DNA of 64,000 nucleotides. Origin: Balanoglossus misakiensis (taxonomy: Eukaryota; Animalia; Hemichordata). Positions 2,761-64,000 of this stretch are shown one piece after another. The translations under genes were made by a program, and so were the position numbers. The notes below the pieces were generated by a model. The model saw only the letters and a program-made list of their open reading frames with translations, did not search any database and was not told the DNA's origin. Within the stretch, counting starts at the first letter, position 1, and each line of letters begins with the position of its first letter. The stretch covers positions 15,817,903 to 15,881,902 of the forward strand of contig CM082577.2 of assembly GCA_040954595.2 (NCBI GenBank), in the 5' to 3' direction.

Positions 2761-2765
2761 GGAAA

Positions 2766-10281: not shown

Positions 10282-11075
10282 CAGACCCACCAATAAGTAT
10301 TTACGCACCCACGTTCTGCAGTGAAAACGTTTATGAAACATGAAATAACACACCTTGCAGACAGTTTTTAGCGAAAATTCAAAAATATTTAATAAATTCA
10401 TGAGAAATAGTTGTACAGCGAAAATCTTTCATGTGCGATTAAATTTGAGCGAGAAATATTGACGTAAATATAGATATGCAACGGAGTCGGCAAAACGTTC
10501 CATTCTCTATGGGAACAACAATGCAAAGAACGTCATGAATATTCATGAGGTGAAATCGAACGTAACAACTGTCAATAATGGGTATGTCCACCCCTTCTCC
10601 TGATGACCTCTCGCAGTCGCTTTGGCATAGTGTCGACGAGTTTCCGACACATATTTTGCTGGAATTGTTCCACAGTTGTTACAATGCGGTCAAACAGGTC
10701 GTCGATGCTGTGAATTGGACGGGAATGAACGTCCAAGTCGATTAACTCCCACAGGTTCTCGATGGGGCTCAAATCTGGAGACTGGGCTGGCCACTCCAAT
10801 GTAGTGAAATTGTCAAACGGATAGCCGTAATCCTGGGGATTTTGTAGAAATGATTTCACATCCAAGGCAGTATGTACAGGGGCATTATCCTGCTGGAACA
10901 CAAAATCGGGCCCGAAGAGTCTCAAAGCCGATGGTAACATTCCGTTTTGTAGAATGTCTAGGTACTTCCAGCAATTTATGGTGTTCTCGACTCGAACGAG
11001 TGAACCAACCCCTGCAGCCGAGAAACACCCCCAAACCATAACACTACCACCACCAAACTTCACTGTGGGACTGAT
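10282..11075 (-). mobile_element. Tc1-like transposon, 3' half (C-terminal catalytic region plus terminal repeat)
   Basis: TA|CAGACCCACCAATAAGTATTTACGCACC terminus at 10282; ORF with PTVKFGGGSVMVWGCF, FQQDNAPVH, WPAQSPDLSPIENLW, RGGHTHY* ending at 10572. Confidence 0.9.
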
Positions 11076-11077
11076 AC

Positions 11078-11915
11078 CCGCCAATAAGTATTTACGCACC
11101 TTGAAAATGTACATTTGACATGAAAAATTATTCACAAAATCGATTGACTGTAACTTATTTCCGAAAATAAATAACCTAGGGAAGGTTTAACCCATTTTAG
11201 TCAACACAGATGTGTTGCCGCGCCGAATTTGACTGTATACGCGGCGAGTTTTCCGGCCAGTAAAAATTCATATGGTTATTGCAATGGCGGTATACTCATT
11301 AACATATCGTTTGCATCTCCTTAACTTTTCGCACCATTGTTTCCGTGGATAATTTCCCTCTATTCATATTTAAATCTCCACCAATCAGAGCTTTTAAATA
11401 TAATTCCGATTAAATTTGGGGGCGGGAAAATCTGCCAGACTTGCTTATGAATATTCTGATCGAGGTTGTCGGAGGTTGCTGCATAATTTTTGTTTGTAAA
11501 CATTGGATCAATGAAACCATGCCCAAAGTTCGCGAACTTCCTGAATTTGTGAAAGGTCAAATTGAGGCACGCATAGGCAAGGTTTGAGAAACCAAGAAAT
11601 CGCAAGGCAGCTTGGAATGACCAAAGGCGGCGTCAGGTACAATATTCGAAAACTTGCTCAAAATGGTAGCACGGACAATTTACACCGATCTGGACGGCCA
11701 AGGCAAACAACAGAACGAGAAGACCGAATGTTAATACGATCAAGCCTGACGGACAGATTTAAGATGGCCCGTGACCTCCGCGCTAAGTTTCACGAGGATA
11801 CCGGGAAACTTTTGAGTATGAGCACAATCAAATCCCGATTGTATAGAGGAGCCAGACTCCGTGGATGTGTGGCCAAGAAAAAGCCGAAATTACAACCACG
11901 GCACATCGCAGCGCA
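11078..11915 (+). mobile_element. Tc1-like transposon, 5' half (terminal repeat plus paired-like HTH N-terminus), frameshifted
   Basis: CCCGCCAATAAGTATTTACGCACC matches the 10282 terminus; ATG at 11519 (MPKVREL...), then QEIARQLG...RSGRPRQTTEREDR...AKKKPKL. Confidence 0.85.
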
Positions 11916-17285: not shown

Positions 17286-17449
17286 CAAAACTCTGTGGGT
17301 CTTTTCACATGTCAGAATTTGTTTGAACTATCGTTGAACTATAGTTGACATCATTAGGTGTGTGGTGTTGTTTAGGTCGATCTGATTTGACATTTAGTTT
17401 AAGGGTTATTACATAAAACAGTTAAAATTCAAAGTTCCTACCTGGTAAA

Positions 17450-20400
17450 ATGGCAGAGTCAAACGAGAAAGGAAAACTTTCTCGTTCCAAATCGTTACCT
17501 TCAGATACTGGGCCAAGTAGGTTCTGCATCATTCATTTTGAAGGAAACACCACTGAAACAAAGGTGAACCCTCTATATGAAAGAAGCTTCTCAAAGATAC
17601 AGCTAATCGCTAAACAAAGACAAGACAGTAGTGATCCTGCTATAAGACTTAATGACATCTGCAAACATCTACCCGAACAATTAAACCCATCAGTTCATGG
17701 TAGTCACCGTTGGTGTTATCAGAAATTTACAAACATAAAACAGTTGAAGAGAAAATACTCAGACGACACACAGAACGATGACCAGGCAAGCACGTCCAAG
17801 CGAACGCGGCGATCTGTAATCAAATCAGACTCTAAATCTCTTCTGCTACCATCTGACAGGTGTTTGTTTTGCAACAGTAAATACATAAAAGTAAAGGCTA
17901 CCCGACAATATTTGGTTAAATGTGTCACAAAGACTGCAGAAGAATCTATAAAGGCAGCAGCAGAACAAAAGGGGGATGAATCTTTATTGTGCAGAATTCG
18001 TGACACTGATTTAGTTGCACGTGAGGCACATTATCATAACTATTGTCGACGAAATTACACAAGGGATGATAACAGACATCAAACCAGTTGTAATTTTGAG
18101 ACTTTGGAGATGCAGGAGGCACACAAAAATGCATTTGAACATATCTGTAACTATGTTGAAGAAAATATCATACTACTACAGAAAATTGAAAGGATGACCA
18201 TGCTGCGTGAAAGATACTTACTCTTCATATTGCAAAATAGTCCAAACGTGTATAACAAAAATTACAAAACTGACAAACTTAAAGACAAATTAAAACGATA
18301 TTTTGGAAATAGAATTGCATTTTGGCAACCATCATGTCGTGGAGAACTTGTATACTCAGTTGGTGTTTCCACTGGTGAAGCTATAGAAACTGCATTTGAA
18401 CATGCTTCATCTGAGGAAAGAAGGGTTGAAGAGGCAGCTATGATATTGAGGCGCCATATTATTAGTACATGTAAGGTATCGGAAGATATGCCTTGGCCTC
18501 CAACCACTACTTGGCTGCTCTCAGAGGAAAGGAAAGCCCCTCCCTTGCTGCGTGATTTCCTTTCACGTGTTGTTTCCGGAAAGCCACAAGAATCCCTGGC
18601 CAAAAGGGCAGAGAGATTTGTTGATTCTTGTTCCCAAGACATTTGCTATGCTGCAACTAAGGGTCAGTGGGTAGCTGCTAAACACACCCTGCTGGCAATG
18701 ACTCTTCGTCATCTCACTGGTAGTGCTGAGATTGTCACCCTATTAAACCGCTTTGGACATTGTCTGTCTTATTCTCAGACTCTAGAGCTGGAAACTGCAA
18801 TGGGCAATAGTGTCACAGCAAATGATTCTATTCTTCCTGCTAGCATTTCAATAGAGAATAATGCAGTTGTTCATCTTTGTTGGGACAATTTTGATTTAAA
18901 TGAAGAGACTCCATCAGGAGCTGGGACGACTCATGTAGCACATGGCATCATTATCCAAGAAGTTGTGGGTGCAAATGTTCCATCCCTTACTGAAACAAAC
19001 GTAAGGTCGTCTCGTGAAAGGTCTATGCGCATTCAGTTACCAGAGGAGCTTGCACCTTGCTTTGCAAAAGCAAAATCAGAACCTAGATTGGAAGTTGTTA
19101 AAACTTTACCAGAAATTCCTGAGGATTTGACTCGTATTGGTTTGTCAGATTTTCTCTGGATTTATTGCCGGAATTCTCCTTACAATGATGTACCAAATGT
19201 TCCTTCCTGGGCTGGATGGCTATCTGCCACAAGCAAAGTAGATATACAAGAAGTGGAGCATACCGGTACATGCTCAAAGGTTGACTACATGGCTCCTGTC
19301 AATTTTCCAATTACAGATAATGCTACAGTACAGCATGTTATCGAATTATCCCAGAAAGCAACAGAGAGTGTTGGACAAAACTTTACAATTGTCACATTTG
19401 ATTTGGCAGTAGCTAAAAAGGCATTCCATATTGTATGGCAAAATCCCCAATTTAAGAATGTGATTGTAAGAATGGGTGTATTTCACACCATATGTTCTCT
19501 GTTTGCTGTCCTTGGTAAGCGCATGAAATGCAGTGGTCTTGAAGATATCCTGCTTGAGGCAGGTGTGTGTGCCAGTGGCTCTCTTGACAGAGTCATGTCT
19601 GGAAAACACTACAACCGTGCATTACGTGTTCACAGAGTGGCATTAGAAGCACTAGAAAGGCTTTTGCTCAGATTATTCGAAGACAACGAATATGGAACTC
19701 AAGGCCTTGATGAACGAGAGCTGGAAGCAGTTCATCAACTTTCTCAAATGCCAAATTCTGATAATATGCAGAAAGTTATGGAAAGTGAAAATTTCCGCAA
19801 GTTTTACAATAAATATTGTAGCTTCAAAGATGAAGTTAGACAAGGTAGACTGGGGAAAACAGCAGAGTTTTGGATGAGTTACATGGACACAGTTTGGCTT
19901 ATCCTCTCATGCATCAGGGCAACAAAGGAAAACAATCTTGACTTGCATGTACATTCCCTGTACAAGCTCTGCGCTCTCTACTTTGCGTATGACCACCACA
20001 ACTATTCACGGTACATTCCTGTCTATTTGATTACTATGATGAATCTGTCTCAAACACACCCAGGTGCGGAGGATCTTCTAAGGAAAAACGGGTTTAGTGT
20101 TTCCAGGTCTACAGTTCCTTTGTCTAGAAATGCGGTAGATATTACGATTGAACAGACTATCAATCGACATGCCAAGTCCCATGGAGGTATTATTGGCTTC
20201 AGCAGGAACTATGCCGCATACTACCGTTGGTGTGTAACTCGTCATTCAAGAGCCAAATATGTAGAAGCAACAATGAACATGGCTGACATGTTAGCTAATG
20301 ATGATTCGGTGCACAAACAAATGAGACCATCACAAATAAAGAGTAGTGAGGCTGATGTAAAAAAGATGCTAGCAGCTTTTGAAAGTTTTATTAATCCGTT

Positions 20401-22174
20401 TTCAGTCGAAAACAAGGAAGAGTTGTACTGCCTGTCCTCTGGTATGCCGGCCCCTCCAGATGTGAGACACGATCTTCTGCAAGCACAGAGTCTTGGGGGA
20501 GCAATAAGAGATGCATTTGTGAAGGAAAGGTTAGTTGATAAAACAGCAAGCTTCCATGACCCGATCAAAAGACTTAAACTCAAAACCTTTGCTTCTCTGA
20601 GAGCAACCAAGAAGATTAAAAGCTCACAAAACAAGCTTATTCAGTTCAGAGCTGAAAGAAATGCATTTGGTCAACTGGTATTGCTATCAACCCAGCATAA
20701 CATCGATTTACAAATGACATTGTCATTTCCACTTGGGCCAGTACCTTGGGCTCTGGCTACAGCTGATGGATGTCCGGCTAAGACTGACAAAGCAAAGCTT
20801 CTTCACAATCTAGAAGCTACAATCAAGCCATCAGACAAACCCCCACACGAAGATACTATTTATGTTTGTGATGGAAATGCAATGTTGCAAGCAATGACTT
20901 GTATACCAGATACATTTGAAGCTGTGGCCGAGATGGCTTTTGGGTTTTTGCCCAAAACATACAGAGTTGATTTTGTGACTGATTCATACCATCCAGCATC
21001 AATCAAAGCATCAGAGAGGCGACGCCGGGGTACGTCATCAACCTTCTTAATTGCTAGCCCAAAGACGAAGGCACCACGAGATTGGAAGTCATTTATGTCC
21101 AACGACAATAATAAAACACAGCTTTTGGAACTGCTTCTACGAGAATGGCAAACACCAAAGTATGCCCCACAACTTCATGGCCGACGGCTATACTTCGTCT
21201 GTGGTGAAAATTGTTATTGCTTGAGTAGTGATGATGGAAATACAGTGAAGATTGCACCAGAACCAGACCTTGACTCATCGCAAGAAGAGGCAGATACCAG
21301 GATTATTCTACATTGTAACCATATAGCTGGGTCATCTCCAGCATCAACACACATTGTTGTGAGGTCACCTGACACTGATGTTTTGGTGTTACTAGTGAAA
21401 TTTGCTCAGAATATGGAGCAGGTGGTGCTCTTTGACACAGGAACTGGAAATAAAAGACGACTTCTCAACGTCAAAGATATAATTTCTGCAAAGAAATCTG
21501 AGCTATGTTCTGTACTTCCTGCGGTACACTCATTCACTGGAAGTGATACCACAAGTGCCTTTGTAAGACGTGGTAAAGTGGGACCGTTGAGAATAGTTGA
21601 GAAATATCCTGAATTTTTGACCACATTTGCAAACCTTGGAATACACAGTGATGTTTCAGATAAAACTGTCAAAGAATTGGAAAAGTTTGTTTGTTACATG
21701 TATGGGAAAGGTCAGTACACTGATATTGACAAACTTCGTTATGATCTTTTCGCGCAAAAGTATCAAGCAAAGTCGGGATGTGTACTGACAAACTACGATG
21801 GCATTGACCTGAGCCTTCTACCACCATGTAAGACTTCTCTTCAGATGCATATATATAGAGCTAACTATCAAGCGCTGATTTGGAACCATGCCCATGTCAA
21901 CAGTCCTGAGATTCCTAGTCCTTCAGGACATGGGTGGAAACAAGATGAAAGTGGCATTCTATCGTATGAGTGGACAAAAGGTGACATTTTGCCACAAGCA
22001 TTGGTAGACATATTATGCCAGTCCACTCCAGAGGGTGTTTCAGATGACAGTGTAGATGATGGCATGGGTAATAATGATGATAATAATGATGATGATGATG
22101 GGGAGGGTGAGGTTGAGGTGGCAGACAGCATGATGGACATCGTTTTTGAAGACAGCGATGATGGAGATGATTGA
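17450..22174 (+). CDS. Academ transposase fused to an XPG/FEN1-like (PIN plus H3TH) nuclease, 1574 aa
   Basis: DDE-region motifs CWDNFD...GTTH, VTFDLAV, MGVFH, DITIEQTINR; nuclease motifs DGNAMLQ, FVTDSY...SIKASERRRRG, QEEADTRIILH, RSPDTDV, HSFTGSDTTSAF..GK; LPPC...HIYRANYQALIW; acidic tail. Confidence 0.92.
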   Translation: MAESNEKGKLSRSKSLPSDTGPSRFCIIHFEGNTTETKVNPLYERSFSKIQLIAKQRQDSSDPAIRLNDICKHLPEQLNPSVHGSHRWCYQKFTNIKQLKRKYSDDTQNDDQASTSKRTRRSVIKSDSKSLLLPSDRCLFCNSKYIKVKATRQYLVKCVTKTAEESIKAAAEQKGDESLLCRIRDTDLVAREAHYHNYCRRNYTRDDNRHQTSCNFETLEMQEAHKNAFEHICNYVEENIILLQKIERMTMLRERYLLFILQNSPNVYNKNYKTDKLKDKLKRYFGNRIAFWQPSCRGELVYSVGVSTGEAIETAFEHASSEERRVEEAAMILRRHIISTCKVSEDMPWPPTTTWLLSEERKAPPLLRDFLSRVVSGKPQESLAKRAERFVDSCSQDICYAATKGQWVAAKHTLLAMTLRHLTGSAEIVTLLNRFGHCLSYSQTLELETAMGNSVTANDSILPASISIENNAVVHLCWDNFDLNEETPSGAGTTHVAHGIIIQEVVGANVPSLTETNVRSSRERSMRIQLPEELAPCFAKAKSEPRLEVVKTLPEIPEDLTRIGLSDFLWIYCRNSPYNDVPNVPSWAGWLSATSKVDIQEVEHTGTCSKVDYMAPVNFPITDNATVQHVIELSQKATESVGQNFTIVTFDLAVAKKAFHIVWQNPQFKNVIVRMGVFHTICSLFAVLGKRMKCSGLEDILLEAGVCASGSLDRVMSGKHYNRALRVHRVALEALERLLLRLFEDNEYGTQGLDERELEAVHQLSQMPNSDNMQKVMESENFRKFYNKYCSFKDEVRQGRLGKTAEFWMSYMDTVWLILSCIRATKENNLDLHVHSLYKLCALYFAYDHHNYSRYIPVYLITMMNLSQTHPGAEDLLRKNGFSVSRSTVPLSRNAVDITIEQTINRHAKSHGGIIGFSRNYAAYYRWCVTRHSRAKYVEATMNMADMLANDDSVHKQMRPSQIKSSEADVKKMLAAFESFINPFSVENKEELYCLSSGMPAPPDVRHDLLQAQSLGGAIRDAFVKERLVDKTASFHDPIKRLKLKTFASLRATKKIKSSQNKLIQFRAERNAFGQLVLLSTQHNIDLQMTLSFPLGPVPWALATADGCPAKTDKAKLLHNLEATIKPSDKPPHEDTIYVCDGNAMLQAMTCIPDTFEAVAEMAFGFLPKTYRVDFVTDSYHPASIKASERRRRGTSSTFLIASPKTKAPRDWKSFMSNDNNKTQLLELLLREWQTPKYAPQLHGRRLYFVCGENCYCLSSDDGNTVKIAPEPDLDSSQEEADTRIILHCNHIAGSSPASTHIVVRSPDTDVLVLLVKFAQNMEQVVLFDTGTGNKRRLLNVKDIISAKKSELCSVLPAVHSFTGSDTTSAFVRRGKVGPLRIVEKYPEFLTTFANLGIHSDVSDKTVKELEKFVCYMYGKGQYTDIDKLRYDLFAQKYQAKSGCVLTNYDGIDLSLLPPCKTSLQMHIYRANYQALIWNHAHVNSPEIPSPSGHGWKQDESGILSYEWTKGDILPQALVDILCQSTPEGVSDDSVDDGMGNNDDNNDDDDGEGEVEVADSMMDIVFEDSDDGDD

Positions 22175-50814: not shown

Positions 50815-51733
50815 TTTTTCATTTTTCTTACTGTGATATTGAATTAACATGAAAATGGATTGTTTTAAGATACCCAAATGAGTATGAGAGGTTCAAGTCA
50901 GCCGACGATGGTGTCACTACAAAGCTTTCTGAAAAATATGAATCACAAAATGGAAGAAAATGGGAAGAAGATTGACAACTTAATAAAGGACCAAATTGAA
51001 ACAAGACAAATAATAACATCACTGCAATCCATGATCCACAAGCTAAACAGCCTGTACTCATATGTATATTTTTAAGGCTTATACTTGTGTGTAGTTCAAT
51101 AAAAATGTTGTTTATTAAACAGTGTCCTAAGTGAAAATGTATTCTTTGATAAATATAAGTCTATTGACCACTGGTACCGGATAGTCTTCTAAATAAACCT
51201 ATAATAAGCAGTCTTTCTTCCAGTTTTTCTGTGACCAGAATTTTTTTTGACAAGATGTCATAAATTTGACCTAGAATAACCTTTAAAGTCCATACTTAAG
51301 AATGTAACCTTCTATTTTAGGTGTTTTGTTAAAAAGTGGCTAAAACTCAAATTACACTATACAAAATTTAATCTCAATCACCACAAGGAACATGCCTACA
51401 AAAGTTCACAAGCATACCATCAGTTTCAGAGAAAACGATATTTGTTAAAAAGTGGCCAAAACTCAAATATCACCATACAAAATCTTACTTTAAGGTGGCA
51501 CTGCATGAAACCGTCGAGACTTTTTCAGAGGCCTATTTCTCATCAAAGAAAAAGTTAAAACCCCCATAAACCATATATATTCTGGAAGCTGAGTTTTTGA
51601 ACTTTTGTTTGGGTTGCAAATATTATCGATCCCCGGAAATGGTGGCGATTTTGGGTGAAAAAAAAACATTTTTTGATATTATGTCATTAAATTTAAATTA
51701 GGTAAAAAAGTTGACCATGCATCATGCATCTTA

Positions 51734-52787
51734 CAGGGCTCGAAAATTCCCGCCGCCCGACGCCCGTGGCAAGTGAAATTTACGTCCGGGCAAGTAAAAT
51801 CAAAATTCCTGCCGCCCGACGGGCAAGTGTCACGGCGATAGGGAGACCGTGGTCATGTTGTGGCTAATGCCCAGCTATCAGAAATGTCAACTTTCTTTGA
51901 GTTTACCGCTATCACAGCTGGCAATCGGCTTGAATGCAAAACACGAGCCCACTGATTTTTTTTCAAAGTTCTTTTCAATAAAGTCATGATACAGTGTAGC
52001 AATATTGTGATGGGCGACTGTCAGATTTTGTTGCATTGTCAAATTACGCGTAATCGTATTGCTAGATGCAGTTGCTATTTTTATTGGAAAAACCAATGAA
52101 ATGGTCGATCTAACTAGTCAAATTCAAATTAGAATGGTTCAAAATAAATTCAGTTACGACTCTCGTAAGCCGACAGTGGCAGAGATTTGAAAAACAGCCA
52201 TGAGTCTCTTGCGTTATTTTTCATCGAACGCATCTGGGTCAACTGACTCAAAGAAACGACGTGACCTCTCTGAATCTGAGGGCGCTTCTGAAAGTGACGC
52301 ACGGTCAAAGCATCAGCGTTACGATGCAGACAAACGCCAAAGAAACTACCTTCCGAAATGGGAGGAACAGTGGCCATGGCTTACCTACAGCGAAAACAAA
52401 ATGTTCTGTAAAGTTTGCCTAAAGTATCCGACGATCGCAAAATCCATGGGAAAGCGGAATGCGTTCTTCGATGGCTGCGACATATTCCGCGTGGAATCAA
52501 TGAAGTCGCATGATAGTGGTCGTCCGCATCTGGAATGTTTAGCCCGTTATCGACGAGATAGTGCGGATGCTAGTGCTACGATTACACTGGGGGACACTCC
52601 AATAGGATTGGCTTTACGAAAGTTGACAACTGACCAACAACGCAAATACCGGAACCTGTTATTAGTGCGTAAATGTTGTCTTTCATGGTGAAAGGTTGGG
52701 GCAAGTCACTTTTCTTGGGGGGCAAGTGAAATTGAAAATTTGCTTGCCCGATGGCAAGTGGGTTATGAAAAAAATTTTCGAGGCCTG
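51734..52787 (+). mobile_element. Internally deleted hAT element with 5-bp TSD (TCTTA) nested in the Kolobok
   Basis: TCTTA|CAGGGCTCGAAAATT ... AATTTTCGAGGCCTG|TCTTA; subterminal GGGCAAGT repeats. Confidence 0.85.
52200..52691 (+). pseudogene. Truncated hAT transposase N-terminus (ZNF862/TTF-type zinc finger)
   Basis: RNYLPKWEEQWPWLTYSENKMFCKVCLKY...FFDGC..FR.ESMKSHDSGRPHLEC; no catalytic domain. Confidence 0.8.
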
Positions 52788-53877
52788 TCTTAATATGTCA
52801 TTCAAAACTAGAGTACACGTGCAAAAAAACGCTAATTTTGTTTCGCGTTATCTGCTTCCATTGAGGAGTAACAGCGTTTAAAAGTTAGATTTTCAGAAAA
52901 TTTGATCAAATTCACGGTGAGTTGTATTGAATCAGAGTTTATTCCCGCCAGGGACACTTTATCGACAAACAAAACTAGCGTTTTGTTGGATGGGTCATAC
53001 ACAATTCCCTGTCAAAATTTGAGCAAATTCGGCCAACGCAGGGCGAAGCTATTTTAGTCCGAAGTTGTCAAGAGCAGCGAAAATGCAAACTGAGAAAAAC
53101 GGCTATTTGCATTGTTGACACCTATTTGTTAAGCTGTGAACTCATTCAGAAAAGTGCTATTTTGGGGTGATTATGCACCATTTCCGCCAAGACGTATTAG
53201 TCAGGTTGTGGGTCAGTATTAGGCCTACCGATTTATGTAAAAAAGTAAAATTTGGCAAAAATCACAACTTTTCATGCAATGCCACCTTAAGCACCACACC
53301 ATAAGGAAAATGCCTACTGAAGTTCAAAGCAATCTGACAACCATTTTCTAAGTAGATATTTGTCAAAAAGTGGCCAAAACTCAAATATCACTTTACAAAA
53401 TCTTACTTCAATCACCACAAGCAACATCATTTCATGCCTACTGAAGTTCAAAGCAATCAGACCAACAGTTTCAGAGAAAACAACATTTGTAAAAAAGTGG
53501 CCAAAACACAAATATCACAATACAAAAGGATTTTCTCTGTGTATAATGGGATACAAAGCCAAAAATGAGAAGAGACCATACAGGAAAATACAAAGATGTA
53601 CATGATTGTTTTTATGTAAAGACTTTTATCAGAATATTGTGGACAGGACAGCAGTGGAATCATGTGCACTGACATTTTGGTTCAACACAACACTGTGCTC
53701 TAGTAATAAAAAAATAAAAAACACGGGCATTGACAAATAGCCAAATTTAATTACTACTGAGTAGGCTGAACTGAGTAAAAAATAAAAAATAAAACTACAA
53801 ATAGTTTTGGAAAAAGCAGAAAGAAACATGTCCGAGAAGAACCATCAGCAGGCCAGACCATTAATCTGTACAGTAGA

Positions 53878-54603
53878 GGCTAGTTATACTTTGCGAAACA
53901 ACGAAACAGCGAAACGAAACAGCGAAACGACGAAACCATTATTAAAATAGGGGCCAGTCATCAAGACGGTGGCGTATGATTTTTTAAAAAGTTTCCAAAT
54001 AAGTTCCTGGTCTGCGGCCTGGTACTAGTGGTTGCGCGCCAAAAAAGAATCCCGCCCCAAAAGGTCAATGTACGAGTATATTCACAGGGCTAAGGATTAG
54101 TTGAAACAAAGCAGTAGTGTCCGTAAGCTTTCGAGGGTCAAACACTGATGGGGGGTAAGAGTAGTAGTTATATATAGAAACACATGTAACTCACACAACA
54201 CAGTATCATTGTCGAAATTTCTTTATTATCTTAATTGCAATTCATGCCTCCCCGCCTTGTGGTATTTAAGGAAATAGTGACAGTTGCTGCCGCATTTTGA
54301 GGTTTCGATCTTTTGTGGTTTCGTTGTGCGCGCGCGTATATTCACTGTGTATATGTAGCAGTTTGGCATGAATCGTTTGCGCGCACACGACGTCGACTCT
54401 ACCACTACATAGTACCAGGCCGCAGACCAGGAACTGGCGACCCGCCGTTTGTTTCCAACGTCAAATTTGATTCTAATGTTGAATTTCCGAGAAAACAATT
54501 TATCTGACCTGTAGTTTTCTTGGCTCGCTTACGTTTTAATTTGGAAACTTTTAAAAAAATCATACGCCACCGTCTTGATGACTGGCCCCTATTTTAATAA
54601 TGG
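53878..54603. mobile_element. MITE with CGAAAC-repeat end; its right TIR is cut by the Gypsy insertion
   Basis: CCATTATTAAAATAGGGGCCAGTCATCAAGACGGTGGCGTATGATTTTT (~53936) is inverted at ~54540-54603; the expected TTTCG continuation is replaced by the LTR. Confidence 0.7.
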
Positions 54604-54804
54604 TGTTGCGAAAGCCGATATGCTCACCTTAGATAAAGGTAAAAGGATACTGCGTAGTAGGTAGGCTGAATAACTTGTAGAATCTCTCGGAGCTCAGATA
54701 AAAGCGTGTAGCTGAAAGCTGGTCTCGTAGAAGAAGGGTCGAACTATATCCGCCCAAGGGGTGAGTAGGGTCAGTGACGTCATCACGGATGTAGATTCAC
54801 AACA
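54604..54804 (-). repeat. 3' LTR (201 bp)
   Basis: Minus strand TGTTGTGAA...TTCGCAACA (9-bp imperfect terminal inverted repeat); contains TGACGTCA, a TATA-like GATATA and AAG|GTGAGC. Confidence 0.85.
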
Positions 54805-54816
54805 CTCTTCCCCACC
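54805..54816 (-). promoter_or_regulatory. Polypurine tract (plus-strand primer)
   Basis: Minus strand GGTGGGGAAGAG directly abuts the TG of the LTR. Confidence 0.85.
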
Positions 54817-54909
54817 ATATTTTTGAAGGGCGTCGTCTTCTTCCCCCAAAACACCGGGGGATAACACAACATTGAACACAACAATAACAAAAATCGAAAG
54901 ATAGAAAGG

Positions 54910-55110
54910 CCAGCTGGGCTTTACTGGGTATGCCCCACTGGTCGGCCGGTTTGTTTCTTTTGTTTTCCCTCCAGCTGGGCTTTATAAGATATGCCCCACT
55001 GGTCCATTTGCTGGATTTTGTTCCCCTTTTAGACAGAAATTCCCTCCAGCTGGGCTTTATAAGATATGCCCCACTGGTCCATTTGCTGGATTTTGTTCCC
55101 CTTTTTAGAC
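54910..55110. repeat. Tandem ~77-bp duplication plus a partial third copy in the Gypsy 3' UTR
   Basis: CCAGCTGGGCTTTA...ATGCCCCACTGGTC occurs three times. Confidence 0.85.
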
Positions 55111-55236
55111 AAAAATTCCCTCTCGATACAAATTCCCCAGGTGGTCCCCGTCCTTCCCCTATTTTTGGCCCTTCTGGTAAAACCCCGGGTACCCCCATCC
55201 CAAACAGTAGATTCCCCAAAGTCCCCTTGCCTTCCT

Positions 55237-57181
55237 TTAAAGCAGGAATAGGCGTCTCGTGTTGTTGGCCGCGACCTCCAGCAGCTCTTCTGCCGTCACG
55301 CCTCGCACCTGGGCTGCTTCCCGAGCCACTTCACCCAGAAAAACAGGGGAGTTGAAACGCTGACTCCCCCGCAGGGATAGATGTGGGGCATCCGTCTCCA
55401 ACAGGATTCGGTCCTCGGGAACTTCCCTCAGCGCTTGGGCTTGGGTTCTGTCAAAGCAGGCCACGCTGGCAGAAAAACTGAAGTAGCAGTTCTGGAAGGC
55501 CTGGGTCCATCTGTTTAGGGTGCGCCGGTCCCCCCCGAAGTTGTGCAGCTGGATTGGTTGAGTTGCAGGGCAGGTTTCAGACACCAGCATCAGGGCCAGG
55601 GCATGTACATCGCTGGCGTGTGGATCCCTCCTAGCGCCCCTGATGTGTAGTACGATGGGTTTGTCTTCAGGTGCCACTTCCAACAGGCGTTGGAGGGCTT
55701 CCTCCTGCTGGCCCCATTCATGGACTGGTGCGGTCCTGTCCAGGCCTATTTCGCCCATAGCCGCTACCAAAGGATGGGTTACCAGCCCCTTGATCCGCTG
55801 CAACAGCTCCTCTGTCATCTTCTTGGCCTTTTTGGGGTGAAGTCCGACCGCAATTTTCCACCCCGGCTCCCTCAGCAGGACATTTGGATAGTCTTCGGGG
55901 TCGCAATAAATCTCGACCCCTCCCACCACTTCCACTGGCACTTCCGGCTCCCGCCCTGGCGACAATTGCAACAGTTCACGGGAAGTGGTGGCTCCTTCAC
56001 TTCGGGAAGCCTGGGCTCTCATGCGGTCTGGGTGAAAATGGGCGTCTATGGCCTGGGGTAATCCCCCGGCCGGTGACGCCACACGGGGTTGGACGTCTGG
56101 ACTGCCAGCGCTTGCTTGGGGCATTTTTCCTCTGGGCCACTTCTGGATATTCTCCCGTTCCTCCGGCGACAGATCTCCAAGGAGCGTGAGGAGAACCCTC
56201 CAGTGAATAAGCACTGCGGGTGTGTTTGGCGGCGACAACCGTATTTTTCGGGGTACTTCCCATCCCATTCGGTGGCACATTCGTCGCATAATCTCTTCAC
56301 CTTCCGGGAGAATCTTGGATGTTGTCGGAAAACGTCCGAGGCCGTGTGTTAGGAAATATTGGAAAAGGGCGACGATGGGTTGTTCCGTCCCCACAAGAAG
56401 CTGGGTCAAACCCCCTAGCAAGCTGACGATTGCGTCCAGATCGGCTTTGCGGATCTCTCCCCGCATGTATGATGGTAAGTGGCGCCTATAAACGTGCTCC
56501 TTCAGCCACTTTGAAGAATGTCCGCAATCCGGTATGGGGCACACTGATTCTTTTCCGGGAATCGGACAGAAGGAGGTTTTCCCGCGTGATTGTGGTCGCG
56601 GTGCCGCTGGGGCTTCCGCTGCTGGAGGCTTTCCCACTGTCCCCGAGAGACCAGGTGGCCTCTCTGGGCTTGCTTTCTTGGGTTGCCTCCAAGGCTCGTT
56701 CTCCGATGGCCTCTTCTCCGGTCTCTCCACCGATGCCGACACTCGGGAGCGGGAGCTTGCAGATCTCCAGCGCTGGCGCGAACTGTTTTTTTCTTCCTTG
56801 CGCTTGGTGGTGGCTGTCGTGGACTCAGGGTGGCTCGGGCTTGGTATATCCCCCGCTGGTCTTAAGACTAACCGTCTGGGCGGTTCTTCCGTTTCCTCCG
56901 TTACTTCCATCGCCTCGTCAGCCTGCGGATGCCCCGGTTCAGCACCTGGGCTTTCCGTAGTTTGCCGAAACTCGCTGCAGGTGATGGTACGGATGATGAG
57001 CCTCCGTGCCCCGACACTGAGATTATCGCCGAGCTCGTATGGCGCTATGGGCATCTCCACCTCCCTCTCTTCTGATCGGCTCATGACCATGGAAACTTCT
57101 CTCCTATAAGGACTGGAGTCCCTTCCCCGCTCAGTCTGGCCCTGTCCCCGCTCCAGAGAACCTGGGGAAACCCCTGGTCCC
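55237..57181 (-). CDS. Gypsy accessory ORF, 3' segment: low-complexity region, C2H2-like zinc finger and TatD-family nuclease
   Basis: CPIPDCGHSSKWLKEHVYRRH; TatD motifs IDAHFHPD, GLHPK, GEIGLD, VLHIRG, LHNFGG, YFSFS, RILLETDAP, NNTRRLF. Confidence 0.9.
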
Positions 57182-57184
57182 GCA

Positions 57185-60100
57185 CACTGCATGAAAACCC
57201 TATAATACAGACAAATTCACACAAATCAAGTTGCCAGTATTTTAGGCTAATACACGCTAATTCTTGTGAGTCCACATGAATATAGGCTTGCTGAATACAA
57301 GCAATGGATTTTTGTCTGTATTCATCAGTATAAGCACTATTCTAAATCCATGCATAGTACAGAAAAATACAGATTGTACAAGTCTTTAATACATTCTGTA
57401 TTAAGAATAGATAGACGATGTATTCACAAAGACCGGTTTGAAATGGTACTGCAAAATACAATCTGTATTCGCAGAGATTTAAGTTCTATTTGCATATCAT
57501 TACTAGAATGACCCGACCAGTGAGAAGGTCAACCTGATTCAGTCCACAGTCCCTCTTTGGCAGATCTAAAATAGTCCATCGATCCTTGTGATCGAAACAA
57601 GCAACATACACAATACAATTTAATCCATCTATAATATCAGTAGGAAAAACCATGGATGCAATCTTTCCTTATACCTCCATGGAACAACGGAGTAAACTTA
57701 GTTCTTGCCAAAGTGTTAAGACGATTTTAATATCCGTAAATTCAAAGCTTGCAAGTTACATATATATGAAGGCTTTATACTGCCAGCACTTAATTGCGTC
57801 AATTTGGCCATGCACAGAAAAAAACTTGTGCAGGAAAAGACTATACGCTGTAGCCTATTCAATGGCCTGAAGCTGACCGGCGACTGTAGCTGCTCAATCA
57901 TTGTTATTTTTTTAGCGCCTGTGCCTACACGATTGTGAGGTAAAATTAGCGTGTCCGGCTTTGCCTAGCCTGCGCGGCTTCCCCACTGCGGAGGACCAGC
58001 AGCCTAGTCACGCGGCGAGACGGACATACCCTGTGATCTGATATAGAAAAAATGGGCAGTCTGGCGCACCACGTTACAAATCTCGAGCGAATGTGCCGTG
58101 GCCGAACTTTCTCGCCATTCTACATCTAACAATCCAAATATGATCGTTATATCTCAGAAATGTGCTGACTGCGAGCCATAGGCTACAATAACCTGTGCGT
58201 TCAACAACGGTTACTAAAAAAGACGGTTGGGAAACTATATGGCTGTCCATTGTAAGATGCTCGACTCGGTAAACACTGAGAGTACTTTTCTAGTTAACAC
58301 CTCCTTCACACCTTCCGAACAATATAGAGTTTCCCAACAGTCTTTTCTAGTAACGCAGTGTGAACCATGCATGACGGAACGGAACACAACACTGTTCAAC
58401 AACACTGGTGATTCATTTTCCTTTCTGTAAAAATGTTTGGCCTGGTGATACTTTCTCTACCAAAACGAAGTTTCAGGACGTCTGTACCATTGTTACAAGT
58501 GCCCCAGGCGTCTATATGAGTCATCTGGTGGGCCAATAAACTACCGATCAAGGTGAACAAAAGACAGTAATGTTTGTGAAAATGACACGACTGACCGCCA
58601 GTGAAATGATTGACACGTGCAGGTGCTCCCCGCACCTGGCCCGGTCATGTATAGCCCTGCGTACGGGTCTGTGTGTTACCGGCGTTACCATAGTGGTAGA
58701 GGCCGTGTAACGCCGGGAACACACAGACCTGTACGCATAGCTATGCCGATGACTGCCCTTAGATCCCCGAAGACTGCCTGATCGAGATATGCCCTGGAGA
58801 CAGCAGGAGCAAAAAAGGGAGAAAAGGCCACAATGCGCTAATTCAAGCCATATCCCAACAGATTAAACTTAATTTAAGCGCAATCACCCTAAAAATAATT
58901 TGACATCCATTTTGAGCTCTTTGGGGGCACTCCTGTGTGTGTGTGTGTGGGGGGGGGGGTCGCCTGATCTCAGCTTGCGTAGGTTTAAGAACATACCATT
59001 CAGTAAAAGGTGTGACACACTATATACAGACTACGAAGCTGCCAGCATTTTGCAAAGCAATACAAGTTTCGGCGTTTTTAAAAGAGTTAAGAATTGATTA
59101 TTTAGAGTAGCATAGGGGGACTTGTACATCGCCACCATAGGGTATACCGGTATATCTCGAATTTGAAAGGTTAAAGTTCAGCAGTGCAGCCGAGCTGATT
59201 GAACTACAGTGACAACAGTGCGCAGCAGAGAGCAAGAACAGAGATCCACTCCAGTCATATTTTTTATAGAGTTTATAGTACAGAAGATATGAGCTATCGA
59301 TCAAGATCGCGAGTTGCTAGTCGATTAACAGCTGACCAAGTTGCACATGACATTGTGCGGTCAACTCCAATTCGTCCGTCCGCAAGTACGTCACGTTCAA
59401 CTTCAAGCGATGATGATCCTCCAACAAGACCAGTACCAAACTTTTATTCTTTAAGGCAGTCAAGAGAAGATGGGCAAAGCTCGCTGACTGAGATGTCTTC
59501 CTACTTCGACCGAACTCCAACCGTCAGCAGCATCGCCAGTCCAGATGTCCATGCTGCAGGTAATTACTATGTTTTAAATCGTTGACATTAATCTGCACAT
59601 TCATAAATCAGTCTGTTTGAACTGTAGCAGTAACTTCGAATCCAATGGCCGAAAGTGTGTTCTGTAGGCAATAAAAGCGTACTGCCTTTGCTTTTAGACA
59701 TATGATGAACATCACTTAGTCATTTGTGTGTTTTTGAAGGGAGTTGTTTGGTTAGCGGATGCATGATGGAAAATTGCCATGATTATGTTCACTTAACAAA
59801 TGTAATGAGAGTCACTCATTCTTCCACGCTACCCCAAAATACTCATTGTTCTGCAGGAAATGACACATGTGCTTGATAAACTAACTTTAACACATACACA
59901 AGGCATAAACAAACTGCACACAATAAGCTTGCACACTTCATCACTATTGTTTGTGACATCTCTATTGTTCATGACACCTGGAGATAAGCATTTCTTTGTC
60001 ATGTTTTGCATTGTAGTGAAGAGAACAATATAAAACTGGAGAATTGAAGCCTGTGTAAAGGTTGTCATTCAAGAGGCATCTTTCAGCAGGCAGGTTCACC

Positions 60101-61394
60101 ATAATACGAAATGCCATTCAAAGAAAAATTTGACTTAATATGTTAGATTTTAAAAAAATATTAATACAGTTCATTTTTTTTTTATTTTCAGACATTAAAA
60201 AGGAGAGAAAGGGTCGTCAATGCAGATGAGAAAGAATTCTGGGCAAGTAACCAAGGGTAAAGGCGGAACTAATGTCGGACGAGGAAGTTGGTGAATCAGA
60301 GGACATAGTTTTAGTCAAGTCGCCGGCCTGGAGAGCTGCACCCCTTAATGAACTGATCAAAACACTTGACAGGAGACTAGAGGAAAAGGGAATTTTAGGC
60401 AGACTAGTCAAAAAAGGCAACGCTCAGCAACTCCATCATCCCGGTCCCGTCCAATCAATGTTTATTCAGAAAACTATGTACAACCTCAGTTACATTTAAA
60501 TTGACTAAAATTCCCTTTTCCTCTAGTCTCCTGCCGAAGCTTGAAATTGTCACCATTATTTCCAATCTCAGGATATCTTTTATATTCTTCATCTTACATT
60601 TCCTGCCATTTTTATAATATTGCAATATGTAAAAACAAAAACAAAATTGTGGAGTTAATCTCTTATTTAAGTTTGATTTTAACAGCTATCTTTTTTATTG
60701 TAATTTATTTATGAATAATAATAAAAAGTGAATAATGAAAAATTTACCCTCTTCATTATTTTTTATTGTTGGCATGAATGTACTAATAGCATGAGAGGAT
60801 GTGTGGATGGGAGATGTCTTGTCTTGTGTCACAGCGTTGGTCAGTCTGTATTCCCATATGACCCATGATATATTTGAAGACGTTTATACAATACTGATAA
60901 AATTCAACCAGTTAATTTTTCTGCCTGTAGCCTGACATCAGGATTGATTGTGCTGAAAGATTTAATGGAATGCTATCAATTACATGGGGTAATTCTGCAA
61001 ATAAACAGTATGCCCTATATGAAGAAAATCGCAGGATAAATTTAATGAAGAAGCAAAGATCAAAAGTCATTAATTTGATGTAAAATCAGTCATGAATCAA
61101 TATGGAACCCATTACCTGCAATGAAAAAATCACACGAATTCATGTCTGTATTTTTCCTAAAGCACAGATGAATACAGACAAGTCCAAATCTTTATTCTTT
61201 GAAAAATACTGATGAATTCTTGCAGTGTATTAGCTGGTATACAGAATAGTGCTTATACTTGTCTATCCATTATGAATATATCTGTATTCACAGTGAATAC
61301 TTTCTATATTAACAATGGACTAGACTGTATTCAACTAAAATACAGGCGATTGTCCATGCTTATATTGTAAGTATTATTAGGTTTTCATGCAGTG
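57185..61394. mobile_element. Non-autonomous EnSpm/CACTA (CACTG-ended) element, 4210 bp, 3-bp TSD GCA
   Basis: GCA|CACTGCATGAAAACC ... GGTTTTCATGCAGTG|GCA; subterminal GAATAC/GTATTC repeats and a shared AGTATAAGCACTATTCT block. Confidence 0.9.
59289..60420 (+). pseudogene. EnSpm accessory-gene remnant (C14orf93-like C-terminal motif)
   Basis: Exon MSYRSRSR...VHAA|GT ending ~59559; later exon ELMSDEE...LVKSPAWRAAPLNELIKTLDRR. Confidence 0.45.
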
Positions 61395-61855
61395 GCAGAG
61401 CTGGGCGGTGGACCCGATGAGCTGGGTGCACTCCACCCTCCGGATGCGACTTCCTGGGTTCCGCTGTCGGTTTCCAGGGTGCGTCGGACGGGTAAGTCTG
61501 GTTGCGTCAGCAAACGGATGTCCTTACACATACCCCGCTGGGAATACTCCTCCGGCATCGCCACTGCCTTCTTGGGGCGTGGGGGCTGGTGGTCCTTAGC
61601 TGGGTTTATGTGTGGCATGTTTTGTGTGATCCAGGGGATTGGAAACATCACATCCGCTTCTCGTTGGATATTAAACACCCACCCCCAGTTTCCCTTGGAT
61701 TTGGCCACCGCATATTGGGCTAGGAGTGCCTCTTGGGCTTCTCGCTTGGGGGCCATCATAATGCCGTGGATAACCTCTCTGGGGCCTAGGAGACGGCGTG
61801 CCTGAGTGGCCCGCCGGACATCCTCAATGGTGAGCTTGGGCATGGGTCTGGGCAT
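61395..61855 (-). CDS. Gypsy accessory ORF, 5' segment (joins 57181 in frame once the CACTG element is removed)
   Basis: ATG at 61855 (MPRPMPKLTIEDVRR...); junction TCT GC|G GGA CCA gives ...PPPSSAGPGVSPG. Confidence 0.85.
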
Positions 61856-61872
61856 ACTGAATGGGGCTGGGT

Positions 61873-61899
61873 CTGCGGACATAAAAAAGAACATGTTAG
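61873..61899 (-). promoter_or_regulatory. Putative 3' splice site for a subgenomic mRNA
   Basis: Minus strand CTAAC (branch point, includes the pol TAA), ATGTTCTTTTTTATGTCCG, CAG|. Confidence 0.6.
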
Positions 61900-64000
61900 G
61901 CTTGTTGAGTGCACTGGGGGCAGAAGTAGTCCCCCGTGCTTCCCTTTCCTGACTGAATTCCCACACAGGACATATGGAACCAGTCAAAACACTTGTCGCA
62001 TTGGATCATTGGGCTGCCATCGTTCGGTCCCCGACAAATGCAGTACTGGTCATTCCCTGGGCTTTCGGTTTCCCCCGTGTCGTTGGCTATGTTTGCCTGG
62101 TGCCTAACGATCCACTGGGGTAAGACCCGATCCCTACATAGTTTGATCCTGTCATGGTGCACAGTCATCTCTGCCCTTTTCAACCTCACTTTGTACAGGT
62201 ATGGGGAGAATTTCCCAATGATCACGGCTGGGCCCTTCCAGGGGGGACTGAGCTTGCGACATTTCCCTTTTGTGGTGGCGGTATCTAAAATGTATACACA
62301 ATCCCCCACCCCATAAGCTTTGGTGTGTGTTCTCAAATCATAGTCCCTTTTCATCCGTTCCTGGGTGGCCCTTAAGGTATTACGGGCGGTTTCATGGGCC
62401 GTGCTGATTGCTCTCTCCAATTCCCTAACATACCCCTCGGCCCTTTCCCCTTCATTGGAAAACTTGTCAGTGCTGTCTTTCCCCTGCCCTGTGGTCACCC
62501 CAAACACCAGATCTGCTGGCAAGTTAAGTTCCCTTCCCAACATTAAACGGTTTGGCGTGTACCCTGTGCTGCGATTCACTGATGCGCGCATTGCCCCTGC
62601 TATCTGGGGTAGGTGTACATCCCACTCGCGCTGATTTCCGATGAAGCAACGCACTGCGTCCATGAGCGTACGGTTATTTCGTTCTGCCTGGCCATTCGCG
62701 GACGGTCTATAAGGGGTCGTTCTGCATTTGTGAATACGCAACAGCTCGCAAATCGCTACGAAAAGTTGGCTCTCGAAATTACGCCCCTGGTCGGTAAAGA
62801 TCTCGAAAGGGTACCCGAAGCGCGCAAAGAATTCATTCACTGCTGCCTGGGCGGTGACCTCCGCCGTTTGTGACGGTAGTGGGATACACTCCACCCATTT
62901 TGAGAACTGATCGACCATCATCAGGATGTATTCGTTTCCCCCTTGTGTCTTGGGGAGGGGCCCGAGAAAGTCCAGATGGACTCGCTCCATGGGGGAGCCT
63001 GCATGGAAACTTTTCATCTCTGCCCTGCCATACCGGTGGGTTTTCTTGTTCTGACTACACTCTGGGCATGTGGCCACAAAATCCTTCACTTCCTCATGCA
63101 TTTTGTACCAGACGTACTTCTGTTTTATTCTGGACAAGGTCCGTTGGGCACCTTGATGTCCGGCAGATGGGATAGTGTGATTCAAGTCTATGACTTCCTC
63201 CTTCATGTCTCGGGGGACTACAAATAATTTGTGGCCTGAGTCAATTTCCTCCCTCCATAAGACTCCATCAATCACACAGAACAATTCCCGGTTCACCCAA
63301 TAATTCTTGGCGGCTGGGCTTGATAGCATAAGTTTCCCTTCTAGGGGTTCTTTCCCTGTCTCAACCCAATGCAATAAATCGCTAAGGTCTGGGTCTTTTT
63401 GTTGCATTTCCCGGAATTCGGCCATGCTTACCCCGACGATAGCTGTGCCCTCCTGCTTTTCACTGGCACGCGTTACTACATATGCTTTGGGCTTCCCCTG
63501 TTCTCTATCCCAACCCTGTTCGATATCAATGTGGGATTGGGGGGCTTCCAACCAATTTCCCTCATGCACATTTCGGCCCTCGTATGACTCGCCTGGGTCC
63601 CAAGGCCAAGGTGGACAGTCACACCCCTGGGGAATTGGTGTGTCCCGGCCTGGGGATAAGGTTTCCCCCGGCGGAGATTCTGCCCCTGGTGTGTCGCTGA
63701 CCGTCTTCCCCTGCCCTATTGCCCTAGCTAAGGGGACCACATCGTCTACCTCCTCTATGAAAGCACTCCATCTCGAGTGGGCCTTCTCACAGTAGTTACA
63801 ACCCCCACAAGGAAGGTCTTGGGGGCTTATCCCATGGCTGAAATTGGAACATTGCTTGGGGTCTTGCACCCGTGAGAGTGCGTCGGCGTTTACATGTTTC
63901 TTCCCCGGGCGGTGCTCTACCTTCATGTCATATTGACTCAGCTCTTCGAGCCAACGGGCTAACTGTCCCTGGGGTTCCTTGAAACTAAGTAGCCAAGTCA
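61896..64000 (-). CDS. pol: Gypsy pol, C-terminal part: RNase H end, Cys-rich tether, HHCC zinc finger, integrase core, PHD finger
   Basis: GQLARWLEELSQYDMKVEHRPGKKHVNADALSR; H..PSAGH...CPEC; VHLDFLGP, FTDQGRNFES, QAERNNR; YCIC...MIQCDKCFDWFHMSCVG...YFCPQC. The frame is open to the window end. Confidence 0.95.
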   Translation of the reverse strand, partial: TWLLSFKEPQGQLARWLEELSQYDMKVEHRPGKKHVNADALSRVQDPKQCSNFSHGISPQDLPCGGCNYCEKAHSRWSAFIEEVDDVVPLARAIGQGKTVSDTPGAESPPGETLSPGRDTPIPQGCDCPPWPWDPGESYEGRNVHEGNWLEAPQSHIDIEQGWDREQGKPKAYVVTRASEKQEGTAIVGVSMAEFREMQQKDPDLSDLLHWVETGKEPLEGKLMLSSPAAKNYWVNRELFCVIDGVLWREEIDSGHKLFVVPRDMKEEVIDLNHTIPSAGHQGAQRTLSRIKQKYVWYKMHEEVKDFVATCPECSQNKKTHRYGRAEMKSFHAGSPMERVHLDFLGPLPKTQGGNEYILMMVDQFSKWVECIPLPSQTAEVTAQAAVNEFFARFGYPFEIFTDQGRNFESQLFVAICELLRIHKCRTTPYRPSANGQAERNNRTLMDAVRCFIGNQREWDVHLPQIAGAMRASVNRSTGYTPNRLMLGRELNLPADLVFGVTTGQGKDSTDKFSNEGERAEGYVRELERAISTAHETARNTLRATQERMKRDYDLRTHTKAYGVGDCVYILDTATTKGKCRKLSPPWKGPAVIIGKFSPYLYKVRLKRAEMTVHHDRIKLCRDRVLPQWIVRHQANIANDTGETESPGNDQYCICRGPNDGSPMIQCDKCFDWFHMSCVGIQSGKGSTGDYFCPQCTQQA

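Follow-up and report, generated by a model that had tools for sequence, protein, structure and literature searches.

What is a TatD-family gene doing in a Gypsy LTR retrotransposon, in the position usually held by env? The question is raised by the window, a 64,000-nt stretch of the acorn worm Balanoglossus misakiensis (contig CM082577.2, positions 15,817,903 to 15,881,902), whose minus strand from 64000 to 54604 constitutes the 3′ half of such an element. Its features are the following.

61896..64000, minus strand: 3′ part of pol (RNase H end, long linker, integrase), running off the window; open frame 63998-61896
63042..63218, minus strand: integrase H2C2 zinc-binding domain (Integrase_H2C2, PF17921, E 8.5e-18)
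62703..62993, minus strand: integrase core (rve, PF00665, E 9.3e-16)
61911..62042, minus strand: PHD finger at the pol C-terminus (PF00628, E 4.2e-10)
61857..61899, minus strand: predicted ORF3 splice acceptor, in which a branch-like CTAAC overlaps the pol stop and is followed by a pyrimidine tract and three YAG (ending 61873, 61867 and 61857) ahead of the ATG at 61855
61395..61855, minus strand: upstream piece of ORF3, a conserved N-terminal segment; ATG at 61855, alternative in-frame ATG at 61894
57185..61394, no strand assigned: 4,210-bp insertion in ORF3, flanked by a 3-bp target duplication (57182-57184, 61395-61397) and bounded by 30-bp terminal inverted repeats that start CACTG
55237..57184, minus strand: downstream piece of ORF3, with low-complexity linker, finger, helical domain and TatD (open frame and Pfam)
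56479..56541, minus strand: C2H2-like finger C216-C221-H231-H236 (conservation among homologues)
56131..56478, minus strand: conserved helical domain with HWR motif, after the finger (alignment and model)
55240..56060, minus strand: TatD barrel, group II (HxH), ligands H383, H385, E479, H514, H548, D599 and E597 (Pfam, AlphaFold, alignment)
54910..55122, minus strand: tandem repeats of 61-75 bp in the 3′ untranslated region
54805..54816, minus strand: polypurine tract (from sequence, placed against the LTR start)
54604..54804, minus strand: 3′ LTR, 201 bp, TG...CA, 8/9 inverted ends (contigs)
54627, minus strand: donor-like AAG/GTGAGC within the 3′ LTR sequence

That this is a Gypsy element with TatD in the env slot, as a preliminary description had proposed, is borne out by the integrase domains, the polypurine tract, the LTR and a Pfam match to TatD (PF01026, E 2.5e-37) within the downstream piece of ORF3, 57184-55237. 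The polypurine tract and 3′ LTR, placed jointly at 54816-54604 in that description, are both present and can be refined to 54816-54805 and 54804-54604 (201 bp), one contig spanning exactly the latter interval and others exiting at both ends. Pol in the window consists of the RNase H end followed by integrase, RT and the 5′ LTR of this copy lying beyond the window, and the order PR-RT-RNase H-integrase is complete in the relatives L016, L019 and L022. The matching 5′ LTR that had been anticipated was found for the window's family in one contig of run X1, from the same organism, which runs past the LTR end into a putative primer-binding site starting with TGG. The PHD finger, missed in the preliminary description, is common to the clade (present in L009, L016, L019 and L022). 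No dUTPase family was found among the Pfam matches of four pols. RNase H motifs were seen in the pol of 4/4 relatives checked, as partial motif matches, so that ORF3 adds to RNase H and does not replace it; TatD as an RNase H substitute was thereby ruled out.

The copy in the window is broken. The 4,210-bp insertion, which we take to be CACTA/EnSpm-like from its inverted ends and target duplication, and in which no transposase was found, splits ORF3, and this copy is thus unable to make the whole protein from a single open frame. The lengths of 461 and 1945 nt given earlier for two pieces in the same frame fit the ATG at 61855, but the pieces are not contiguous here, being separated by 57185-61394. 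They belong to one gene, since natural homologues without the interruption match the upstream piece (P0005, E 2e-17; P0008, E 8e-16) and one contig of run X1 leads straight from 61395 to 57181, the insertion being absent (depth 75.7; the short side has 87 letters). An intron was considered and ruled out by the inverted ends, the target duplication and the existence of the joined form as DNA.

TatD between pol and the 3′ LTR proved to be a family trait, as had been suspected. Among 30 metagenome loci examined, 16 were too short or without a TatD match, and of the 14 informative ones (TatD preceded by 2.2 kb or more) 13 carry an integrase-bearing pol on the same strand directly upstream of TatD, the exception being L035 with no pol within 4.6 kb upstream. 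Two loci show the whole gag-pol-TatD-LTR layout, gag, full pol and a TatD ORF3 being present in L019 and L009, and contigs joining the pol stop to the ORF3 start are present in two runs. The clade layout, shared across many families, is gag - pol(PR-RT-RH-IN-PHD) - ORF3 - PPT - LTR. At 50% identity the element TatD proteins form 150 clusters or more, and the named hosts are bivalves, acorn worm and sea urchin. Viral contigs yielded only ordinary phage-type TatD (26-32%), with no family-specific patterns and none with pol, and the prokaryote genomes gave only ordinary TatD among the matches listed, which served as outgroup. TatD-bearing Gypsy elements are an old, diverse clade, of which the window holds one broken copy.

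TatD is under purifying selection across families. In the 8 of 15 pairs that are informative, 7 of them with L016 as common reference, dN/dS is 0.07-0.37 with the upper confidence limit under 0.7; six of the other pairs are saturated and one has two changes only. In the window's own family, third codon positions account for 14/22 listed differences (p=0.003). The N-half evolves faster than the barrel, with dN/dS of 0.24-0.32 in most pairs and 0.76 (CI 0.54-1.07) in one. Thus, of the earlier idea of a captured nuclease kept under selection, the selection stands (dN/dS 0.07-0.37), while a recent single capture gives way to an old and diverse clade. High-depth contigs carry deletions inside TatD (55711-55828, 55877-55981), which implies that a copy whose own TatD is damaged can still spread. 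Integrase and TatD distances are correlated (rho 0.40-0.46, p 0.01-0.02, 8-9 elements), a result driven by two near-identical pairs.

The barrel has a complete metal-binding site. Group II TatD proteins are defined by the metal ligands HxH, E, H, H and D (PMC10085689), and the window has the motifs DAHFH, GEIGLD, LHIR, LHNF and LETD. The intact metal site of the preliminary description is therefore upheld, and it is kept across the 155 homologues over which conservation was counted (H 143/147, H 136/146, E 146/155, H 144/154, H 145/154, E 149/152 and D 141/152 of those aligned). The AlphaFold model is a TatD barrel (Z 28.6, rmsd 2.6 Å over 246-248 residues versus S. aureus and E. coli YcfH), with YcfH/TatD DNases as top structural matches, and the enzyme is very probably catalytically active. 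By our reading, E479, E597 and D599 (GExGLD and ETD motifs) would correspond to E593, E705 and D707 of TATDN2, which are required for R-loop activity (PMC10711561).

The N-half had been called disordered, but it is not only that: it holds a conserved N-terminal segment of ~130 aa, matched by 15/155 homologues, and the helical domain with the HWR motif, which is modelled confidently in the AlphaFold structure. This domain matches no known family, its Atlas look-alikes all scoring below 0.9. The finger, which has no Pfam match, keeps C216, C221, H231 and H236 in 91/94, 96/97, 96/100 and 101/109 aligned homologues and would bind zinc. A single-sequence fold of the finger and helical domain reached pLDDT 42, and a wide fold search returned barrel matches. 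ORF3 as an env was ruled out, since hydropathy is low and TatD is the only Pfam match: the window ORF3 shows no env family match or transmembrane segment, its highest 19-residue hydropathy being 1.37 and 0.41 in the two pieces, and the maximum is under 1.6 in 7/9 proteins and 1.7 in two.

The env genes nonetheless offer a comparison for expression, their messages using a donor in the leader and an acceptor before ORF3. The acceptor pattern precedes the ORF3 ATG in 9/13 elements, versus 51/457 other ATGs (11% background), and in 7/10 after merging near relatives (p=2e-5); in one of the nine, L033, the ATG concerned is not homologous, and the first ATG lacks the pattern both in the window and in L008. 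Donor-like sites occur near the LTR end in 3/3 LTRs examined. From these signals, the ORF3 message is likely to be spliced in the env manner, from a donor near the 5′ LTR end to the acceptor just before the ORF3 ATG. Errantiviruses and other env-bearing Gypsy elements are thus alike in having a third gene between pol and the 3′ LTR and in the predicted donor/acceptor layout, but differ in that here a soluble enzyme replaces the membrane glycoprotein.

In a tree rooted on group I TatD, drawn without eukaryotic TATDN1/TATDN3, the element TatD (100/96) falls outside animal TATDN2 (100/99) as a separate clade, and the two are joined at 100/99, with bacterial group II TatD outside their branch in the best tree. 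In an earlier tree of only three groups, the sister relation depended on the root. A grouping of bacterial group II enzymes and the element TatD apart from TATDN2 was not rejected by the AU test (p=0.073); nesting the element TatD with mollusc/annelid/brachiopod TATDN2, the sole nesting tried, was rejected (p=0.02). Two motifs common with TATDN2-like proteins are near-absent in bacteria (174/200, 57/95 and 1/30; 139/200, 58/95 and 0/30). By tree and motifs, TATDN2 appears to be the nearest host paralogue, and a TATDN2-related origin is probable. Animal TATDN2 is alike in its group II HxH barrel behind a long N-terminal extension (PMC10711561, PMC12709183), in FCDP-type and FP motifs and in forming the sister clade in the best tree, whereas the element TatD has a single open frame within a retrotransposon and its own N-domain, finger and helical domain. 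TATDN2 is reported to degrade RNA in R-loops and to be more active on RNA than on DNA (PMC10711561), and in medaka it is expressed in germ cells and limits R-loops (PMC12709183); for TATDN1/3 and the paralogues of E. coli, the activities are those of DNA exonucleases/AP endonucleases (PMC10085689). Since identity to TATDN2 is only about 30%, substrate choice need not have been inherited.

Because the apparent nearest host paralogue is reported to degrade R-loop RNA, DNA-centred roles are treated here as rivals and not as the leading idea. We tentatively propose, at somewhat less than even chances, that the window holds an insertion-broken Gypsy copy whose family would have taken a TATDN2-like host gene into the env slot as third gene, would make ORF3 from a spliced subgenomic message, and would use the nuclease to strip RNA from RNA-DNA hybrids on the element's behalf. 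The odds are even that the protein works in the nucleus, separately from the Gag-Pol polyprotein, with its finger/helical and basic segments providing the targeting. It is possible, if a shade less probable than the proposal as a whole, that the protein serves mainly to resolve R-loops, or RNA-DNA hybrids left over, wherever copies of the element are transcribed or have newly integrated in germ cells, making their expression and insertion tolerable. The host already has TATDN2, which counts against a need for the element's own copy. Doubtful, but still conceivable, is the fullest version: that an ancient Gypsy lineage of molluscs, echinoderms and hemichordates captured a TATDN2-like germline R-loop nuclease once, in the env slot, before the TATDN2 of these phyla diverged; that it dissolves, from a spliced message, the hybrids at its own loci and escapes R-loop-linked damage or silencing, with the integrase PHD finger reading chromatin; and that this would be the first R-loop resolvase encoded by a retroelement, concealed in public annotations among host genes labelled 'uncharacterized', in the hundreds.

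A DNA-processing aid, a 3′-5′ ssDNA exonuclease/AP endonuclease trimming cDNA ends or flaps or helping to repair integration gaps, would suit the YcfH/TatD DNases as top structural matches, the intact ligands and the activities shown for TATDN1, TATDN3 and E. coli paralogues (PMC10085689). We consider it rather unlikely, as the nearest paralogue by tree and motifs favours RNA over DNA (PMC10711561) and ORF3 is a separate gene, unfused to integrase in the elements seen. A counter-defence protein, which would act with the integrase PHD finger at chromatin and destroy what sets off silencing or innate sensing (guide small RNAs, scaffolds of nascent RNA, or excess cDNA or hybrids), is unlikely: no positive selection was seen and the barrel is under plain purifying selection, although the env-like separate expression signals and the long, variable, faster-evolving N-half speak for it, and a silencing link was raised for the DEDDy ORF3 of bdelloids (PMC5408684). 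Elements that splice a message need to export their unspliced RNA too, as an accessory protein of Cer1 is reported to do (PMC10309623), and the barrel might be mainly an RNA-binding scaffold for export, packaging or 3′-end handling of genomic RNA, with catalysis secondary; retention of each metal ligand in over 90% of aligned homologues makes this improbable. The broken copy and the pol-less L035 could point to a host retrocopy captured just once or neutrally, or to a gene that happens to lie nearby in the assembly, a reading rendered extremely improbable by pol upstream in nearly every informative locus, the number of clusters, monophyly apart from host TATDN2, dN/dS far below 1 and the contigs from two runs that link the pol stop with the start of ORF3.

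The closest parallel to the proposed hybrid-clearing element is Juno/Vesta of bdelloid rotifers (Rodriguez, Kenefick, Arkhipova 2017, PMC5408684), also of Gypsy type, in which the ORF3 that follows pol encodes an enzyme and not env, its catalytic residues are intact and it is a published 3′-5′ exonuclease of predicted function; this lowers the novelty of a TatD ORF3. Juno/Vesta have a DEDDy fold instead of a TatD barrel and a dUTPase in pol, and they are rotifer-restricted recent branches in near-neutral within-genome evolution. The present clade is, in contrast, old, multi-phylum and under purifying selection, with no dUTPase, a PHD-tipped integrase and an ORF3 with extra finger and helical domains. 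Bacterial group II TatD (YcfH, YjjV) and human TATDN3/TATDN1 are alike in fold (Z 25-29) and metal ligands but are stand-alone enzymes of ~260 aa (PMC10085689). No paper linking TatD/TATDN2 to LTR elements was found in the open literature, Repbase, Dfam, GyDB and subscription journals lying outside the search; 'TatD' is absent from the main text of PMC6238403, PMC8556966, PMC6338049 and PMC13524379, and PMC5840709 and PMC6962438, in the parts cited, treat host TATDN2.

The env slot of LTR retrotransposons thereby gains a second, independent nuclease class, and unlike in the rotifer case the TatD ORF3 stays intact under purifying selection across phyla. This suggests that the life cycle of LTR elements has a need that recurs and goes unmet, be it hybrid clearance, end repair or counter-defence, which is now testable with a compact and well-modelled enzyme domain. 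Probably, many TatD 'genes' annotated in the genomes of bivalves, urchins and acorn worms, and also in symbiont MAGs, are ORF3s of retrotransposons.

The minus-strand Gypsy element of the window carries a third gene (ORF3) between pol and its 3′ LTR, and its parts are laid out as follows.

Window edge to stop at 61896, minus strand: 3′ part of pol, an open frame encoding the RNase H end, integrase and a PHD finger
Between pol and the downstream ORF3 frame, minus strand: upstream piece of ORF3, 166 codons
57185–61394: insertion, 4,210 bp, flanked by a 3-bp duplication; its inverted ends of 30 bp (87%) begin with CACTG
57186–55240, minus strand: downstream ORF3 frame, 649 codons, C2H2-like finger and TatD domain
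54816–54805, minus strand: purine tract preceding the LTR
54604–54804, minus strand: 3′ LTR, 201 bp, TG...CA

Pfam recognizes the integrase H2C2 (E 8.5e-18), integrase core (E 9.3e-16) and PHD finger (E 4.2e-10) in pol, and the TatD domain in the downstream ORF3 frame (PF01026, E 2.5e-37). The inverted CACTG ends and 3-bp duplication of the insertion are marks of CACTA/EnSpm elements; a Pfam search of its 4,210 bp found no transposase, and a very high-copy hairpin element (58651–58744) is nested within it. The lengths of the two ORF3 pieces in the preliminary description (461 + 1945 nt) agree with coordinate arithmetic. That the pieces form one gene follows not from this arithmetic, but from naturally uninterrupted homologues that align to the upstream piece (P0005 at 33% across 129 aa with E 2e-17, P0008 with E 8e-16, and 15 among the 155 homologues with E <= 1e-3) and from a contig of sequencing run X1 which joins 61395 to 57181 and lacks the insertion. 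The matching contigs come from three runs of one sample, possibly the window's own source, and are thus not independent of the window. Contigs in two runs bridge the junction from pol stop to ORF3 start (61814–62159, 61814–62132). One contig spans exactly 54604–54804, others diverge from the window at 54804, and one extends beyond 54604 into a TGG-starting stretch, as expected of a primer-binding site; these ends define the LTR as 201 bp. Since high-depth contigs (about 450–590) skip the TatD parts 55711–55828 and 55877–55981, deleted derivatives of the window's family also exist, one of them successful.

Directly adjoining the LTR end is a high-copy element of 670 bp (53935–54604) whose inverted arms measure 66 bp, its inner arms 26 bp; the retrotransposon apparently inserted at the border of this MITE. 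Elsewhere in the window, 21-bp inverted ends at 51490–53290 surround a zf-C17orf113 fragment (PF25431, 52191–52688), likely a decayed DNA transposon; a DDE_3 transposase fragment lies at 10575–11186 (minus strand, E 1.2e-8); and a 1,582-codon open frame without Pfam match (17426–22171, plus strand), probably another mobile element, adjoins 13 tandem copies of a 137-bp unit (15445–17278).

A TatD ORF3 is a real and clade-wide feature of these Gypsy elements. Family-specific patterns retrieved 30 metagenome loci. In 14 of them the TatD domain is preceded by 2.2 kb or more, and the placement of TatD behind pol in the preliminary description was borne out in 13 of these 14, which have a same-strand pol relative upstream, usually ending in a PHD finger. 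The sole exception (L035, 3863–5154) is a decayed ORF3 with flanking direct repeats and no pol within 4.6 kb upstream. Locus L019 shows gag (611–3985), pol with PR-RT-RH-IN-PHD (3925–8463) and TatD ORF3 (8546–10990); the same three genes are present in L009, on a circularly permuted contig. There, gag of the clade (5649–7175) has a PNMA-like capsid region, ahead of which a helix-hairpin-helix motif (PF12836, E 2.3e-6) opens the protein. Between families, integrases differ by 36–52% and TatD domains by 56–71%, so the pol–TatD pairing is old. Exonucleases are already known from the env slot, because ORF3 of the bdelloid Juno/Vesta elements is described as a DEDDy 3′–5′ exonuclease of untested function (PMC5408684), whereas that of the window clade is TatD. 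Targeted searches of the open literature, and the main text of surveys covering LTR clades of molluscs and annelids, yielded no TatD/TATDN2-type ORF3, which may nevertheless be catalogued in Repbase, Dfam or subscription journals.

A sequence search gave eight relatives (top, Ptychodera flava, 49%). With a profile run against 1.84 billion representatives, 1,218 matches reached E <= 1e-30, and the top 150 of these were analysed. Among 155 homologues, the metal ligands are conserved in 136–149 of 146–155 aligned rows; for the four residues of the finger the counts are 91/94, 96/97, 96/100 and 101/109. A Pfam scan of 49 long members detected TatD in all, RT or integrase in none and a CCHC knuckle in two; such knuckles in the N-half of P0112, P0140 and P0188 hint at RNA binding. 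Named hosts are P. flava, Argopecten irradians (five near-paralogues), Dreissena polymorpha, Ruditapes philippinarum, Pecten maximus and Lytechinus variegatus, whose proteins, judging from the tree, would be element-borne. Members in Sedimenticola MAGs are likely host contamination; P0006, P0012 and P0185, labelled bacterial 'TatD family hydrolase' there or merged with a scallop cytochrome P450 in a predicted gene, likely reflect contamination and mis-annotation.

The captured nuclease was proposed to be under selection, and dN/dS is indeed not near 1: it is 0.07–0.37 for the TatD domain in 8 of 15 pairs (Nei-Gojobori, upper confidence limits < 0.7), seven of the eight sharing one reference, the others being saturated (six) or having two changes (one). 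The ORF3 N-half gives 0.24–0.32, with one pair at 0.76. The 22 differences listed for the downstream piece within the window's own family are a best-supported subset, and 14 of them fall at third positions (p=0.003).

Comparison with TATDN1/2/3 and bacterial TatD had been suggested; our tree, without TATDN1 and TATDN3, sampled 20 element domains from 200, 20 TATDN2-like domains from 95 (obtained via a barnacle TATDN2-like protein) and 32 bacterial TatD, with group I TatD as the root. In this tree, element TatD (100/96) and TATDN2 (100/99) group as sister clades with joint support of 100/99, and two motifs of element TatD side with TATDN2, while bacterial group II affinity is not rejected (p=0.073). 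Nesting with spiralian TATDN2 was rejected (p=0.02). P0278, P0280–P0285 and P0287, from short contigs, form a separate branch within the TATDN2-like clade with extra domains (PF02902, PF02008, PF04326, PF00643), possibly a second mobile TatD lineage.

Splice signals are predicted before ORF3. A fixed acceptor rule (YAG <=12 nt from the first ATG opening 60 codons; >= 60% pyrimidines in the preceding 20 nt) is satisfied in 9 of 13 elements versus 51 of 457 other ATGs, and, once near relatives are merged, in 7 of 10; one pass is at the wrong ATG and two failures are narrow, at 55%. The window and locus L008 fail at the first ATG, but an acceptor-like site precedes the ATG corresponding to the start of the homologues. 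A donor-like site lies near the 3′ end in all three LTRs examined.

As for function, repair of cDNA or at integration, to which the description of TATDN1/3 as DNA exonucleases and AP endonucleases (PMC10085689) would lend itself, is rather unlikely; counter-defence is somewhat less likely again, and a scaffold role improbable. We tentatively favour, short of calling it probable, clearance of RNA–DNA hybrids, because the predicted ORF3 structure is a complete TatD barrel (pLDDT 84, Z 28.6 to YcfH), the window protein has no membrane anchor, and human TATDN2 is reported to strip the RNA strand from R-loops, requiring E593 and E705 (PMC10711561), and medaka tatdn2 to shield primordial germ cells against R-loop damage (PMC12709183). 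ORF3 would then be made separately from the rest of the element, as an accessory nuclease, and may clear RNA–DNA hybrids at the element's own loci.
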